Origin: Carcharhinus amblyrhynchos
Lineage: Eukaryota
Direction of reading: 5' to 3'
Assembly: GCA_965287045.1 (NCBI GenBank)
Contig: OZ336876.1
Coordinates: forward strand, 51,088,001-51,152,000
Length of the DNA stretch: 64,000 nucleotides
Position numbers and translations under genes: made by a program. Below the pieces are notes generated by a model that saw nothing but the letters and a program-made list of their open reading frames with translations, was not told where the DNA came from and did no database searches. Below are positions 12,266-28,062 of this stretch, one piece after another. Each line of letters starts with the position of its first letter. Within the stretch, counting starts at the first letter, position 1.

Positions 12266-14724
12266 TCATGGGTGAGGTACCAGAAGATTGGAGAGTGGCA
12301 AATGTTGTCCCTTTGTTTAGAAAGGTTGGCAGGGAAAAGCTGAGAAACGACAGGTCAGTGAGCCTCACATCTGTAATGGGTAATTGGTTGGAAGATATTT
12401 TGAGAGACAGGATCTACAGACATTTAGAGATACAAGGACTGATTAGGGACAGTCAGCCTGGCTTTGTGAGTGGAAAATCATGTCTCACAAATTTGATTGA
12501 AATTTTTGAAGGAGTAACCAAGAAGGTAGATGAGGGCAGTGCAGTTGATGATGTCTACATGGACTTTAGCAAGACCTTTGACAAGGTACTGCATGGTAGG
12601 TTGTTGCATAAGGTTAAATCTCACGGGATCCAGGGTGAGGTATCTAAATTGGCTTGTTGATAGAAGCCAGAGGATGGTTGTAGAGGGTTGTTTTTCAAAC
12701 TGGAGGCCTGTGAGCAGCAGTGTGCCTCAGGGATCAGTACAGGGTCCACTATTATTTGTCATTTCTATTAATAATTTGAATCAGAATTTAGGAGGATTGG
12801 TTAGTAAGTTTGCAGATGACACCAAGATTGGTGCCATAGTGGACAGTGAAGAAAGTTATCTCCGATTGCAACAGGATCTTGATCAATTGGGCCAGTGGGC
12901 TGACAAGTGGCAGATGGAGTTTAATTTAGACAAATGCGAAATGATGCATTTTGGTAGACTGAAACAGGGCAGAACTTACTCAGTTAATGATAGGGCACTG
13001 GGGAGAGTTACAAAACAAAGAGATCCAGGGTACATGTTCATAGCTCCTTGAAGTGGAGTCACAGGTGAAGAAGGCATACAGCATGCTTGGTTCATTGGTC
13101 AAAATGTTGAATACAAGAGTTGGGATGTCTTGTTGAAGTTGTACAAGACATTGGCAAGGCCACACTTGGAATACTGTGTACTGTTCTGGTCACTGTATTA
13201 TAGAAAGGATATTATTAAACTAGAAAGACTGCAGAAAAGCTTTACTAGGATACTTGATGATTTGAGTTATAAGGAGAGGCTGGAAAGACAGTGACTTTTT
13301 TCTCTGGAGCGTAGGAGGCTGAGGGGTGATCTTATAGCATCCATAAAATAATGAGGGGAATAGATAAGGTAGATAGTCAATATCTTTTCCCAAAGATAGG
13401 GGAGTCTAAAACTAGAGGGCATAGGTTTAAGGTGAGAGGGGAGAGATATAAAAGTGTCCAGAGAGGCAATTTTTTCACTCAGAGGGTGGTGAGCGTCAGG
13501 AACAAGCTGCCAGAGGTCGTAGTAGAGGCGGGTACAATTTTGTCTTTTAAGAAGCATTTAGACAAGATGGTAATAGATCAGTGGCGTAGCCAGGTTTGAA
13601 GGTTAGGGGGACCGAGCACATAAAAAAGGTGCCACAGAATAAAAAATGACCACCCTCTCATTACTATTCTGCCAATCCCCGCCGTGTCCAGGCCCTGCTC
13701 CACGTTGACATCATCACAGTCTGGTGTCATCACGATGTACGCAAAATAACCGTTCTTTTCTTGGTAATTTACTTTCTTTCCTTTAAAAAGATTTATTTTT
13801 GAAAAGGCGCCACTTCTGAAAAATGACTACTACTGAAGCCCGTCCCACTGACAGAGTGGGACTGAGGAGCCGTGTCTGGATTGGCGGAGCTTGTGGACGC
13901 GCCATGCTGTGATTGGTGAACTCAGTTGTCAGTCACCGCTGAGTGAGGTCCTGTGTACCGGATTGACGGAGCGGCGGGGGGGGGGGAGGTTGGGGTGACG
14001 TATCGTCCTAGGATTGGCTTATCGAGCTGTCAGGCAGGCGGTTGGGTGTGGATCTTTCCAATAAATCACAATATATAACCACATTAAATTTACATTAAAA
14101 ATCAATAATCACAGGTAGACTGTAATTAATGAATTCCGTGCATGAAGTTCAAAAGGCATTCAAAATCTCCTCGCGTGGACACTTGCAGACAGTAGGAAGG
14201 ACAATGAATATTTCTCTCTGACATAAGCATCTCAGGAGTGCTGCGAGATAGTTAATTTCAATAGAGAAAAGGGATATTTCAACTTCATAACTTCTGGCTT
14301 GACTTTGTGACAGAATTAAAAGATACAGTGTAAATAATAAACGAGTATTGGTGTGTTTATCCACTCACCGCACTGCACTTTACATGAGTGTTTCTGCCAT
14401 TCAGTTCCTAGGTTATGTACACTCCCAATACAGGTTTCAGCTTCTCTGTAAACTTGTCAGTTAGTGGATAAGGAGTTGTGCTCGGTTTATCGAGCTGTCA
14501 GTCAGGAGATTGTATGTGGGCGGGAGTTAGTATAAAAGGCGCCACTTCTGAAAAATGTGCTCAGCAGTTGCTCCCCCTGCGCCCACCCTAGCTAAGCTAC
14601 TGGTATAGAGGGGTATGGGTCAAATGTGGGTAATTGGGATTAGCTTAGGGGTTTAAAAAAAAAGTCGGCATGGACAAATTGGTCTGAAGAGCCTGGTTCT
14701 ATGCTGTACACCTCTATGACTCTA
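12266..14724 (+). mobile_element. CR1 LINE (RT domain to 3' tail), interrupted by a ~1 kb DNA transposon at 13579-14602
   Basis: Frameshifted RT fragments VPEDWRVANVVPLF, SCLTNLIE, YMDFSKTFDKV, VPQGSVQGP, SKFADDTK. The 3' tail resumes at 14603 and ends ctatgactcta. Collinear with the uninterrupted sister copy at 44923-46663. Confidence 0.92.
13579..14602. mobile_element. Non-autonomous hAT-like DNA transposon nested in the CR1
   Basis: Terminal inverted repeats cagtggcgtagccagg / cctagctaagctactg (13/16 match). Degenerate ~8 bp target duplication gtaatagat / gtatagag. Subterminal direct repeat aaaaggcgccacttctgaaaaatg at ~13802 and ~14534. No ORF. Confidence 0.8.
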
Positions 14725-22240: not shown

Positions 22241-24802
22241 TTATCGTACCACCAGACAAGAAACACATAATTTAGATGGTCCGATGCAATCATCATGACA
22301 AAATGCCCCGCATCCCTTACACATAATCATGGCTTTAAGCCTGCAATAACATTTAGAAGGTGAATCCTCCACGTTGCCACCTTCAGGAAATGTTTGGGCA
22401 GATTGGCTGCTTGTATTTATTGACTGACCAGCAGGAAGTGTTGTCACAGTAACGGAGAATGACACCATATTTCCAGAGTTGTTTGAGACTTGGCTGTACA
22501 CAGACATTCCTGTGACTGTGGAGCAATGGTTTACAGATGAAACAGAAGGAACATTGATACTGCTACTATGAACAGGTCTAAATGCAAACTGGGAACTTGC
22601 ACGGTTTCCATGAGAAGGAAACTTTTGTTGGTGTTGGGCAGGCTGTTGAAATCCTACAGGCAGGTTGGATATCCTATACGGGTCTTGGTGACTCTGTGTT
22701 AATTTGCCGCCACCAATATGAGCTAAATTTGACTGGATTCCCTGATAGAATTCTTTAGCCACTTGTGTAGGAGACAGTAAAGGAGTGTTCTCCTTTCCAG
22801 TATGTCTATAATCATGTGTGGATGCTTCCACTTTCAAATATCCACTGGATAAATTATCTACTCGAGGGCAGGCAACGGCATCACCCGTTTGGGTGGGATC
22901 CTGTTCTGTTTTAATTAGTACAGATGGAGGATGACAGGGCACTGACCTGTTAATTGATTCTGATGTTACCTGAATGCTACCATCAACTTGTTTTGTTCTG
23001 TCTTCCTTAAGATCCTTCTCAGATGTTTCTATCAGACCATTTATACCAGCAGAAGTCTCAGTGTTCTGAATATGGGCTCTTTTCCAGCTCTCTGAACCTC
23101 TTCCATAGGTAGCTGTATTAAGAAGGTAATGGCCAGATACAGCTGGCTTAAGAGCAGACTTTGTGCCCATCAAACCAAATCGTGATCTTTGACCAACTGA
23201 AATACCTGCAGAGGGAAAAGCTGAACTGTTGACTTCGTGCTGTAAAGACACAGGGACTAAGATTTGACCCTGCACATTGCTCAGTATGGCCTGCTGTATC
23301 CTTTCTTGTGATGTGCTGTTGAGCATTTCTGGTTGACTGCAGTCTTGATCAGTGTCTCTGACTTGCTGCTCTTCATTGGTAGAACTGTGCTGTGTGGCCT
23401 GTTCAAACAACTTCTGTTGTCTGTGTTGATCAATTGATCCAACAACTCGTTCTGCTATTGTTTGAGATTGTCTTCCTTTGATAAGATCAGTAGATACCTC
23501 ATCAGACCCGTGAATCACAGTGGTGGCACTTCCCTCAGTCACAGATATGACTAATGTGCCATCAGGTGATGTCTTCATTTTATCATCAAGTGAAGTTTTA
23601 GGAAACTGAAATACAGGCTTCATCTCAACTTTGGTTAGAGGCTTAGGCAGGAATTGCTCTAGTGGCACTTCTTTCCCTTGCAACAACTGTGTAACCAATG
23701 GGTTATTGGCAGGGATGGAGGAACCAGTTTTTGGCACAGCTCCACAAACAGGTCCTTGTGTTTTAAGGCTAGGTACATTATGTGAAGTGCAAACTGAAGG
23801 TGTAGATGTAGTAGATGCAATGATAGGGCTTTCTACATTTGTAATTGTTTCAGAAACTGGGGAGGCCACTTCCAAAGTTCCAGCTGTGCTTCCAGTTGCC
23901 ACAGAAATAGAACCAGCTGCTGTGACAAACACATTGGCTGAAGTGGAAACCTGATGGCCTCTTTGTGTATCAAAAGAAATGGAGGGCAGCTGAGTATTTG
24001 CAGGCAGTTTTCTGTCCACATTTGATGCTCTAACACGAGAGTCTATCAAAGGCTGGTTATTCATTTCACCTGGTTTATCGTGCACTGCAAAATTTCCTGA
24101 GCTTTGAGTTCCTCCCTTTGTATACTCAGAATTTCTGAAAACAGGTACAGGTTTCAAAACTGCTCTCGAGGTTGGACTGGACATCTGGTTTATAGTTTGT
24201 GTCTGCATTGGTGCAGGAGTGGCTTTTGTTGCAGCATTGCTTGTTGTCACTGAAGTTGTCTGCAAGGATGATAGTGAAGTCACATATGTTGCTGCATGTA
24301 CACTTGATATTGTTAATGCTGGTGTTGTAATTGTGGTTGCGGATTTGCTGGGGTCTGTATTGCTAACTGCAAATACGCACTGCGCCATGGGGGCTTGCTG
24401 TAATTGTGTTCTCGCATCCATACCGGTTGGAGTATTGGCCGTTGCATCTGCACACTTTGTAGGTTGTTGTCCTGGACTATCAAACAAGGGCCCTCCAATA
24501 CCTCGCCTGCCTCCAGTTCTGTCCATGTCCAGTGTGCTCCCCTGTCCTGAGATTCTACTGATCCCAGTCCCAGTCCCTCCTCCCCCTCCACTCCCTCCCC
24601 CCGGACCTGGGCCTGGAACTGCTCCACCTGCAGCTGCGGCTGCTGCTGCACGTTGTGCCTTGGCAAGTTGAGCTTTAGCTTTGATGTCTGCAAGAGTTCT
24701 GGCTCCAGTTCTCCCAGGACTAGGGACGAGCAGTGGGAAAGTGGCCCTTGGAGAGACCTGACCAGTCTGGGTAGGCACAGGTCTAATTCTTGAGACTGGA
24801 AT
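22241..24802 (-). CDS. ASXL2: ASXL2 last coding exon (end of ASXM1, ASXM2, C-terminal PHD finger)
   Basis: Acceptor ccttacag|ATT at 24802. Reads IPVSRI...QVSPRA...[24 protein letters not shown], then [16 protein letters not shown], and ends [44 protein letters not shown] and CYCRLK/CVSCL match ASXL2 rather than ASXL1 or ASXL3. The ORF-track start (24850) is intronic. Confidence 0.97.
24313..24756 (-). CDS. Overlapping +1-frame transframe (TF) ORF of ASXL2, putatively reached by ribosomal frameshifting
   Basis: Stop-free from the AG_GTC_TCT site to the TAA at 24313: [36 protein letters not shown]...[12 protein letters not shown]...QHQH*. The last 126 codons are ORF 24313..24693. Contains EHNY at 24411-24400. 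Confidence 0.75.
24752..24759 (-). promoter_or_regulatory. Putative -2 programmed ribosomal frameshift site AG_GUC_UCU
   Basis: Zero-frame codons CAG GTC TCT (Q-V-S). A -2 slip re-pairs the A-site tRNA perfectly on UCU. Matches the RG_GUC_UCU motif described for vertebrate ASXL2 and arterivirus nsp2TF. Confidence 0.7.
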
Positions 24803-24909
24803 CTGTAAGGGATTTAAAAAGAAGAAAATTAAAAGAGTAATTACATGCATATTGAACTTTATATCTAGTTATAGATAGGAACAATGAGCAAACTTTTACA
24901 GTCCCCTGT

Positions 24910-25558
24910 GGGTGAATTTGTAGGTAAAAGTCTTATAAAACTCTATGGATGCCAATTCTGCCACCTACTACTGCTAATCTGGCAGCGATTTAACAGGTGG
25001 CAGGGAAGTCTCAGGCACGCCACCTGCACTCGTGCCAAATAAGGCCCTTGAGTAGCCAATTAATGGCTATGTCCCACCCAGCTGCCATTTTTCAAGGTTG
25101 GTGATGGACAGTAAACCAGCAGGTAAATCTGCATGGTCTTTTGGCAGGAAAGTGAGTTCAGGGTGCCTCCTTCATGGACCCCTTGTCTGATCAAAAGATC
25201 TCCGCCCAGAGTGTTCCTCCTTATCTCCTCCCCCTCCTGCCTGTACAACCACTGCCCCGGGGTCTCCTATCCTGGCTCTACTGAAAAGTTCTTGCCACCA
25301 CCACTCCACCTGGTTTACATGTCAGCTAGCTCCTGGTTCTTGGTGACTGCGTGCCACTCCCAGTCAGGCTATAGGGACCAGAGAACTACTGGCCAATCTA
25401 ATATGCTGGCAGCTCTTGGATGTGGGGCTTCCTCCACAGATGGGAGTGGAAGGCCTATCTTAAGCCCTTTAATGTCCCTCAGAGCATTAAATGACTGCAG
25501 GGCTTGCAGAGCAAGTCTTATGTCTACTTTTTTGGTGGCCACCCATAAAATCTTGCCC
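24910..25558. mobile_element. Harbinger-type MITE in the last intron of ASXL2
   Basis: Imperfect termini gggtgaatttgtagg / cataaaatcttgccc and a GC-rich body shared with other copies. The 171 aa ORF resembles no protein I recognise. Confidence 0.5.
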
Positions 25559-25739
25559 AACGTTTTGCGGATTTTTGTCTTTAAAGTTGCATATGGTTTT
25601 TTAAACATAAGGCTTTCTAGTCCTTTAATGAAATTTAAAACAAAGTGAAAATATATTGTTCCTGACTGATTTTTTTTTTATAGAATGCAAGATAGAAACT
25701 TAAGGTGCTTGCAGTAAGTGTCTAAAGAGATTCAGAGCC

Positions 25740-26330
25740 CGCTTGTATCATGATGCATTTTCATTCCTAGCTTTATAATTAGAGGCACGGAGTACAAAAG
25801 CAAGGATGTCATGCTGAATCTTCATAAAACACTGATTAGACCCCCAAATGTAGTACTGTGGAAAGTCTGAGTATCACACTTTAGGAATGATATCCAGGCT
25901 ATCAGAGTGGGTGGTGGGGAGATGATACCAGAGAGGAAAGACTTCATTTACATTGGGACACAACATAATTGGGATTGTTCTCCTCAGGGCAGAGTAGTTT
26001 AAGGGGAGGCTTTATAGTAAAATGGCTCATAATTTTGAATACAAATTTCAAGAAATTATTTCCAGTGGCAGAGGGATCAGTAATCAGAGGACACAGATTT
26101 AAGATGATTGGCAAAAAGGACCAGAAGCAACATGAAGGAACAATTTGTATGCAACGAGTTTTTAAGATCTAGAATGCATTCCTAAAAGGAATATGGCCAC
26201 CAGTTACAAAAGGAACCAGATTAGTACTTAGAAAGGAAAAATTTGCTGTGCTATAGTGTAAAGTAGGTAGGTTGGCTAATTGCATAATACAGATGGACTG
26301 AATGATCTCCATTTATCATTCTATGATTCT
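25740..26330 (+). mobile_element. CR1 LINE 3' fragment, old
   Basis: Remnants RGTEYKSKDVMLNLHKTLIRP and LFPVAEGSVIRGHRFK; tail ttctatgattctat. Confidence 0.75.
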
Positions 26331-26439
26331 ATACAAGTAAACATTTCCATTTATTACTGTTTCACCACCTTCTTTTATCCACTATGTCCTCAGATCAATG
26401 TCAGACTCATCAGCTGGAATTTTCCAACTGTGTCCACTG

Positions 26440-27268
26440 GCAGGATCTTAGGTCCCGCCAAAGGCAATGGCTTTGGGCTGGCTTGTTACATCTGCTGTGG
26501 CCAGAAAATCCAGTCGATCTCCAAATACATCCTTTTTTCCAAGTGATGTTTGGTTTAAGCTACATTATGAAGACTAAGGGATCCTCTGGGACATTGGGCT
26601 AGACTCTTGTGGCAGGAGACATGGCAGCCAAGCTCATTTATTGTGCACAGGGTCTGTGTCAGTCTCCTGGCAATGGCAAAAGCCTCCCCAAATTTGGTGG
26701 GTGGAAGGTGCTGACCTCGGATTCTGGCTGCCGGTGAATGTCAGTTGGGTTCATTTATAAACCAACTGACAGCCATTATCAAAGCTCACTACAATCAAAC
26801 ATATTTTCCCATGTCATCAGAAGGTCGCCCAGCAAACCCTATCAGGGCAAGGTCATGGCGGAAATGGTTCCTTGCTAATCGGCACTCTCTATCCGCTTAA
26901 GATTCATGAGATTGGCCTCTCACTGCATTCCCCGCTCCATTTCCCCCCCACCTCCATATGATCCTAACCCCACAATTCCCATCCTGCCATCACTCTTGGG
27001 ACCCATGATGATACTCGGCTTTTGGTGAGTGCATTGCTGCCAGAAGCCACTGCTCCCATTGGTAGCTACGAGTTTCTGATTGGCCAGCGGCCCTGGCAGG
27101 CAGGATTTCCATCGCCGGGGACCCTCATTGCAGGAAAGGTCCAATTGTGGCCACTTAAATGCCTTAAAGGCACTTGATTCTGTCAGGCCACCCTCACGGA
27201 ACTGATGGGGTCCCCTGCTAGTTCTCCGACCAGTGGGAGAGATTCCATTAGACCACAGAATTCTGGCT
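26440..27268. repeat. GC-rich MITE-like DNA transposon remnant
   Basis: Begins ggcaggatctt and ends agaattctggc; GC-rich body with the gattggccagc motif shared with other MITE-like copies. Confidence 0.4.
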
Positions 27269-27314
27269 ATTGCATCTTGCACCTGGAATATATAAAGAAC
27301 AAGACTTGAAGTAC

Positions 27315-28062
27315 CTTAAGAGGTGGGACTTTGAGTTCATGTGGCTCATCTTTGTTTCTGGGAAAGTCCTTTGGTGGGGTCCGAAATAACTGGTGGTCCA
27401 CAATGCGGGGTCTTTTCTCAGGACTGAGCAGAGACTCTCCTTCATTGGTAGATTTCCTCTTCAGACCCTCTGCAGTAACTTCCATTTGTTCAGTGGAATC
27501 TGGGACTTGGTCTTGCTTGGAAGACTCTTTGGTCTTGCTTTCCACTGATTCAGAAAGCTCAGGCTTTTTACATTTAGATGTTTCTGAACTCTCCGACTTC
27601 AGCTGCAGTTTGGGCTCATTTTGGTTTAATTTTGGCTTAGGTACCAAGGCTTTAGCCTCTGGTGAGATGACAGAGCCTATTTTTAAAGTTTGATTATCTT
27701 GTTGCAGCACTGAAGTTACACGGTCTACAGCCACCTTCTTCTTAGACAGGTTACTAATCTCTGAGGATTGATTGTCTTCATGGTTTTTAATAACTGGAGC
27801 TGATTTAGTGACAGATTGTTTTGAAGAGGCTGCAGATTTTGCTGTTTCTTCAACCTTTTCTTCTACTTTCAGCATCACTACTTCTTTGGTCATTGCTTTG
27901 TTGTTGGTTACTCCTTTTGGCTCAACTGGTGTTTCTGCCTTGATGGAAGTGTCTTTTTTGACTGATTGTAGAGGGGCTTGTTTGGATGGAGGGCGTTGAC
28001 GTTCCTCAACAATATTCGATAATGCAGTCAGCTTTTCTGAGTCTTCCAGACTTATACCAGAA
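27315..28062 (-). CDS. ASXL2: ASXL2 penultimate coding exon (748 nt; SGISLEDSEKLTA...SPEKRPRIVDHQLFR...KVPPLK)
   Basis: Acceptor ttttacag|T at 28062 and donor AAG|gtac at 27315. Phase 2 in and phase 0 out, matching both neighbours. KVPPLK joins IPVSRI to form the ASXM1 start. Confidence 0.95.

Follow-up and report, generated by a model that had tools for sequence, protein, structure and literature searches.

The window analyzed here is a stretch of 64,000 nucleotides from the shark Carcharhinus amblyrhynchos (assembly GCA_965287045.1, contig OZ336876.1, positions 51,088,001 to 51,152,000 of the forward strand), and the shark ASXL2 gene is encoded on its minus strand. A +1 frameshift at UCC_UUU_CGU has been predicted to give ASXL1-TF, and a -2 frameshift at RG_GUC_UCU to give ASXL2-TF (Dinan, Atkins and Firth 2017, PMC5644247); the parts of that paper drawn on here report no influenza-like +1 sequence in either ASXL2 or ASXL3. 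The question raised by this locus is whether shark ASXL2 also carries, upstream of its -2 site, a +1 site of the ASXL1 kind that feeds the same TF frame across a splice junction.

Six ASXL2 exons were placed in the window by tblastn, and proteins named ASXL2 from two shark species match a 51-residue stretch at the end of the penultimate exon with 100% identity. A dystrobrevin-family match lies 0.26 Mb away, and DTNB is the neighbor of human ASXL2 (Katoh 2013); by sequence identity and dystrobrevin neighbor, the gene is ASXL2. Elsewhere in the window, an ORF on the plus strand (12530-13051) has a partial reverse transcriptase match (PF00078) and is probably a retroelement fragment. The features of ASXL2 used below are:

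27315..28062, minus strand: penultimate coding exon, 748 nt, one base at its entry completing the upstream codon
27386..27460, minus strand: +1 frame open upstream of the candidate site, after TGA at 27463-27461, its length chance-sized (P 0.41)
27390..27392, minus strand: CAG (Gln) codon directly before the candidate site, common to all three paralogs
27381..27389, minus strand: candidate +1 shift site UUA_UUU_CGG (L-F-R), homolog of ASXL1 UCC_UUU_CGN, from zero-frame codons and alignment
27386-27383, minus strand: proposed P-site slip from UUU to UUC
27315..27385, minus strand: 5' extension of the TF frame within the penultimate exon, FGPHQ...SHLLR
24803..27314, minus strand: GT-AG intron separating the two candidate shift sites
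24794..27320, minus strand: zero-frame L-K/I-P-V spanning the junction, matching the ASXL1 572-576 BRD4 ET-binding core
22241..24802, minus strand: last exon, zero-frame ASXL2 C-terminal region up to the PHD
24313..24802, minus strand: last-exon part of the TF (+1) frame, ending with the stop at 24315-24313
24795..24798, minus strand: further CAG, 7 nt past the start of the last exon and possibly usable as an alternative acceptor into the TF frame
24752..24759, minus strand: AG_GUC_UCU, the -2 site proposed for ASXL2 (Dinan 2017), 39 codons past the UUU
24400..24411, minus strand: +1-frame EHNY, fitting the HCF-1 binding motif consensus [DE]HxY; the zero frame reads RTQLQ

The codons TTA TTT CGG at 27389-27381, which the first-pass annotation had placed in the peptide RIVDHQLFRT, read in the zero frame just as it had them, and the +1 frame that it had carried over the 27315/24802 junction into the TF ORF is indeed open, from 27460 to the stop at 24315-24313. 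The predicted junction is supported by its GT/AG consensus (donor AAG/GT at 27315, acceptor CAG/ATT at 24802) and by the contiguous KVPPLK-IPVSRI of annotated shark ASXL2 proteins; no RNA dataset was listed as containing the exon. The length given for the shifted segment, 561 nt or 186 codons plus a stop, is arithmetically correct (71 + 490 = 561), but its first codon is the re-paired Phe, so 185 new residues are predicted from a +1 slip at UUA_UUU_CGG; a -2 slip at AG_GUC_UCU would yield 146. The site contains the in-frame UUU_C tetranucleotide, has CGN (as CGG) in its A site, and is followed directly by a long +1 ORF (185 new codons, including EHNY). Its E-site codon is UUA and not YCC, and it is therefore a degenerate variant rather than a canonical member of the YCC_UUU_CG class, one that a published YCC_UUU_CG screen (Loughran et al. 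2025, PMC12551717) would miss.

How much of this could be chance was judged by synonymous resampling (20,000 draws), using the codon usage of 3,391 codons from the three ASXL genes of this genome outside their TF regions. Given Phe-Arg, UUU_CGN is expected with P = 0.20. The lack of a +1 stop in the 39 codons from TTT to GTC_TCT has P = 0.044, rising to 0.15 when the Leu-Lys codons at the exon end are held constant, which is fair because two ASXL2-like exons without F-R also read CTC AAG. With the position preset by homology, UUU_CGN and the open inter-site frame jointly come to about 0.01-0.03, which is modestly beyond chance and not decisive; the open +1 stretch upstream of the site is unremarkable. 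For the ASXL2 TF open frame together with its motif, P was 0.0004. A 3' RNA stimulator was sought and rejected: the 65 nt downstream within the exon fold at -6.8 kcal/mol (z -0.57), nothing stands out, and the same folding in the paralogs gave z values of 1.61 and -0.17. Such structure is not required for PA-X type sites. Internal initiation at the +1 AUG at 27445 was also discarded, as the open stretch there is chance-sized and, by the part of the Dinan 2017 supplement used here, human has no TF-frame AUG. Neither the +1 peptide of the penultimate exon nor the 3' part of TF had a match in the protein database search, which is weak evidence, and Pfam matched no domain on the TF frames.

This genome has three PHD-bearing ASXL genes. 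At the matching position, the ASXL1-like gene on C16 (C16:22109543, minus strand) reads CAT CAG TCC TTT CGG ACC and the window ASXL2 reads CAC CAG TTA TTT CGG ACC. The alignment of the two is gap-free from PEK until well beyond the site, with the shared pattern PEK[KR]PR-x-x-D-H-Q-[SL]-F-R-T, and the window peptide Q-L-F-R falls in the same register as Q-S-F-R of human ASXL1 (PDB chain). The match to the ASXL1 +1 site, as first proposed, is thus borne out, and UUA_UUU_CGG is, by alignment, the positional homolog of that site. Shark ASXL1 itself has a 157-codon +1 frame with EHSY in place of EHNY (P 0.0003 for open frame and motif by resampling), and harbors a second in-frame AGC_UUU_CGG seven codons downstream of UCC_UUU_CGG. 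The identity of TTT CGG between paralogs was rejected as strong evidence because even control exons share 42-50% of codons at identical residues; the overlap region, at 54-60%, is not significantly higher, with Fisher p values of 0.14-0.70 against those exons (paralogs only).

The third paralog, on C8 (C8:72753221, last exon from 72744147, minus strand), reads GAC CAG TCC TTT CAG ACT. No stop interrupts its +1 frame over 146 codons that span its own junction, and the +1 ORF of its last exon, like that of ASXL2, contains EHNY, where ASXL1 has EHSY; at the position of ASXL2 GTC TCT it has ATC TGT, and hence no GUC_UCU. In this one genome, resampling produced the open frame with P = 0.012, the motif with P = 0.075 and the two together with P = 0.00125. 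We take this gene to be ASXL3 by elimination, by its best atlas match (ASXL3 at 0.94, of low recognition and a lead only) and by dystrobrevin synteny: a dystrobrevin-family match lies 0.7 Mb from it and none was found on C16. Such synteny is described for human, and ASXL3 is the outgroup among the ASXL genes (Katoh 2013). ASXL3 has been stated to have neither a conserved TF ORF nor EHxY (Dinan 2017, PMC5644247). The TF arrangement in shark ASXL3, albeit from a single genome, runs against that statement and is the strongest new fact of the analysis.

Two protein searches yielded 123 ASXL2 proteins; one of the two supplied the best 120 of 557 matches to a query that itself contains S-F-R. Two proteins without ARTLADIK, reading L-F-R and S-F-R, were dropped, and the remaining 121 were aligned; 78 of these are from birds and none is by name from a teleost or gar. 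Among the matches listed, the Phe of the site is present in 121/121 and is followed by Arg (103), Gln (17) or His (1), all of which can begin with C, and never by Lys, although nearby basic columns of the same proteins do exchange Lys and Arg (85/33, 81/40 and 112/7). An A-site CGN is not general, Gln or His occupying it in 18/121 of the listed proteins and CAG in human. V-S was kept in 119/121 listed proteins, and the spacing from F to V is 39 codons in 27 of the 41 proteins listed, the others having 37-40 except for one mis-anchored row. The E-site residue varies freely: among the matches listed it is Ala in 73, Leu in 21, Ser in 12, Pro in 10, Ile in two, and Val, Gly and Gln in one each. 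Ser occurs in chimaera, turtle, tuatara, two ratites, three salamanders, two frogs and two skinks, and because of this spread the shark Leu is probably derived. That no forced M-[KNTIM] +1 stop occurs in the 4,609 residues compared from between the sites was discarded as evidence, the rows being related.

Codon-level UUU_C comes from the shark, two near-identical relatives and human only. The two relatives, from two of four sequencing runs compared (the other two gave no contig over 27300-27760), are ~99% alike there and have the site unchanged, with one change at 27340 that makes no +1 stop; at such closeness this says little about conservation. Human ASXL2 reads CCA_UUU_CAG 39 codons before GUC_UCU with an open +1 frame, and its last +1 stop lies 17 codons upstream of UUU_CAG (Dinan 2017 Suppl. 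Fig. S4); a rough P(open) of 0.04-0.14 was computed for it from codon fractions. Tuatara ASXL2, a single record (P0022), retains S-F-R at the site and has H-P-S instead of Q-V-S, and GUC_UCU is therefore impossible there; its zero frame at the motif, R-P-Q-L, excludes EH[NS]Y and would permit DHxY. If the record is right, tuatara is a natural test of which site matters. A kiwi ASXL2 prediction (P0054) runs into TF-frame EHNYSK soon after ARTLADIK and is probably a gap-driven misprediction of the sort Dinan describes.

A pattern scan of metagenomes gave 147 matches, with none confirmed, and the viral contigs scanned gave no match. A degenerate DNA pattern found six metagenome loci, four of them not recognizable and two of them ASXL2-like vertebrate exons (L008:316-440 and L011:420-547) in which SSVS repeats replace F-R and VPPLK is kept; an atlas search with one of these exons gave no usable match. 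Our guess is that both are from teleosts, in which case the loss of F-R accompanies the published loss of TF (Dinan 2017).

Taken together, we read UUA_UUU_CGG as descending, in ASXL2, from a single +1 shift site ancestral to the ASXL family, and as one that may still slip a few ribosomes, with a probability of roughly 0.45. The parts of this reading differ in strength. Common ancestry of the +1 site and TF frame across the family is, in our judgment, highly probable; UCC_UUU_C, the TF frame and the motif likely predate all three paralogs, and the GUC_UCU -2 site is likely a later addition in ASXL2, an ancestral +1 site with a later GUC_UCU being the simplest reading because ASXL3 is the outgroup. 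Present-day shifting and selection at the ASXL2 site, which we infer, stand at about even odds. Mechanistically, tRNA-Phe in the P site would move its pairing from UUU to UUC, the mechanism of PA-X and PLEKHM2, at a level probably far below 1%, since the E-site UCC that stimulates shifting has been lost. When UCC is replaced at the PA-X site, shifting persists at a level 40-70% lower (Firth et al. 2012, PMC3498833), and a validated +1 shift at UCC_UUU_CGG in PLEKHM2 reaches ~1.3% without other elements (PMC12551717); by analogy, these make low-level slippage plausible in shark ASXL2. The +1 product would comprise ASXN-DEUBAD followed by 185 TF residues and would carry the HCF-1 motif but neither the BRD4 ET motif nor the PHD, and the -2 product would retain the ET motif.

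The inherited-site reading draws its support from the gap-free homology, the ASXL3 arrangement, the invariant Phe followed by Arg, Gln or His, human CCA_UUU_CAG with its open frame and, from one record, tuatara S-F-R where GUC_UCU is not possible. Several facts pull the other way. The E-site residue is free in ASXL2, against a near-invariant UCC in ASXL1 (PMC5644247); UUU_CGN is expected by chance in 20% of F-R pairs, and shark ASXL1 has its second TTT CGG seven codons downstream; decay of CpG alone could yield Arg to Gln or His without Lys. The A site is CAR in mammals, squamates and shark ASXL3, whereas viral sites prefer CGN (PMC3498833), and shifting in ASXL1 is itself described as only predicted (PMC12551717).

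A second account is that the sequence is a vestige: it would descend from the ancestral +1 signal but have lost selection in ASXL2, with TF reached only through the -2 site, F-R/Q kept for the sake of the zero-frame protein, and the open inter-site frame due to luck. An E-site codon free to vary is what a vestige would show, and few dipeptides between the sites are at risk of a +1 stop, so P(open) may be as high as 0.15. In the passages cited of PMC5644247, GUC_UCU is fully conserved amid variable neighbors and is the 5' edge at which the synonymous conservation of ASXL2 begins, downstream of the UUU, and V-S persists in all but two of the 121 listed proteins. However, both distant ASXL2 genes resolved to codons, shark and human, have UUU_C and an open frame, Lys follows Phe in 0/121 of the listed proteins, and the two metagenome exons without F-R still keep VPPLK. 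We regard the vestige as somewhat unlikely.

That the TF frame is entered by splicing rather than slipping, through an alternative 3' splice site, is considerably less probable. Candidate acceptors are the CAG before the site, that within UUU_CAG (mammals and ASXL3), and, in the shark, the second CAG of the last exon, 7 nt in. They are in phase for TF, as is any zero-frame NAG of the penultimate exon, and CAG at 24798-24795 would join the TF frame directly for 160 codons; alternative splicing plus duplication has also been called the most parsimonious origin (2026 preprint, 10.64898/2026.05.28.727796). Against this, no splice form in support was found in the parts consulted of that preprint and of PMC5644247, ASXL1 and ASXL3 lack the +7 acceptor, 27389 is preceded by a weak pyrimidine tract (0.56 vs 0.81 for the real acceptor), no database protein contains the shark +1 peptide or TF tail (weak evidence), and the conservation of UCC_UUU_CGN in ASXL1 would be left unexplained. 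No better placed is the proposal that the upstream UUU_C is the main TF entry in ASXL2, as in ASXL1 and ASXL3, with GUC_UCU conserved for some other reason such as dual coding: one mechanism would then suffice for three paralogs, shark ASXL3 keeps TF without GUC_UCU, the tuatara record has no Val, and the arterivirus -2 site depends on a viral protein stimulator, but GUC_UCU is conspicuously conserved among variable neighbors (PMC5644247), the upstream E-site codon is degenerate, and tuatara is one database entry whose R-P-Q-L cannot give EH[NS]Y.

The suggestion of two TF isoforms, with or without a segment, is supported at the level of prediction: the predicted products differ in the segment containing LKIPV, which matches a tested BRD4 ET-binding motif. 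In published work, BRD4 ET binding depends on the ASXL1 572-576 core, and the ET domain is also bound by a fragment of ASXL2 that covers this region. The Burgess 2021 preprint was a further source. If both ASXL2 sites work, there would be a cellular gene with +1 and -2 shifts into one overlapping frame, its two short forms set apart by a BRD4-binding motif that cancer-type ASXL1 truncations expose. The first-pass annotation had also seen a possible ancestral or intermediate state. Its ancestral half is strengthened by ASXL3, but the shark as a special intermediate is not supported: the ASXL2 proteins compared generally have F-[RQH] at a distance of about 39 codons from V-S, the human frame is likewise open at UUU_CAG, and the E-site Ser of other lineages is nearer to ASXL1 than the shark Leu. 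The dual-site arrangement is thus plausible, and would be a property of ASXL2 broadly and not of this shark alone. More speculatively, and in our view unlikely, a single pre-duplication +1 shift at UUU_C would make an HCF-1-binding short form from all three shark ASXL genes, human CCA_UUU_CAG would slip, and the -2 site would decide whether the BRD4 motif is retained.

As had been supposed, no description of the dual arrangement was found in the literature searched, most subscription journals lying outside its scope; within the same scope, neither an upstream +1 site in ASXL2 nor a TF frame in ASXL3 was found, and the passages used of the 2026 preprint contain no mention of ASXL3. The published model, of two unrelated virus-like shift mechanisms arising separately in sister genes, has been called unparsimonious (10.64898/2026.05.28.727796). 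The homology of the +1 core in ASXL2, together with the TF frame of shark ASXL3, would point to a single origin and later elaboration. The finding names the codons involved and points to a candidate site in human ASXL2.

Of known systems, influenza A PA-X resembles the shark ASXL2 site in its P-site re-pairing on UUU_C and in CGN in the A site. The PA-X optimum, however, is UCC and CGU, whereas the shark has UUA and CGG; CGG halves PA-X shifting, and UUA is absent from the E-site codons tested (PMC3498833). PLEKHM2 has identical P- and A-site codons and needs no 3' structure, but it keeps YCC in the E site and shark ASXL2 does not. The closest likeness is to the ASXL1-TF site, in its position before KVPP, its UUU_CG core and a +1 frame that ends after EH[NS]Y, and UCC_UUU_CGG in ASXL1 of this genome is as reported for ghostshark (PMC5644247); shark ASXL2 differs in a non-conserved E site, UUA instead of UCC, and in the extra candidate site 39 codons downstream. 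That extra site, the ASXL2-TF -2 site of Dinan 2017, is present in the shark at 24759-24752 with the same TF frame and EHNY, and to the Dinan 2017 scheme this genome adds an ASXL2 +1 core of degenerate form and, in ASXL3, the complete TF arrangement.
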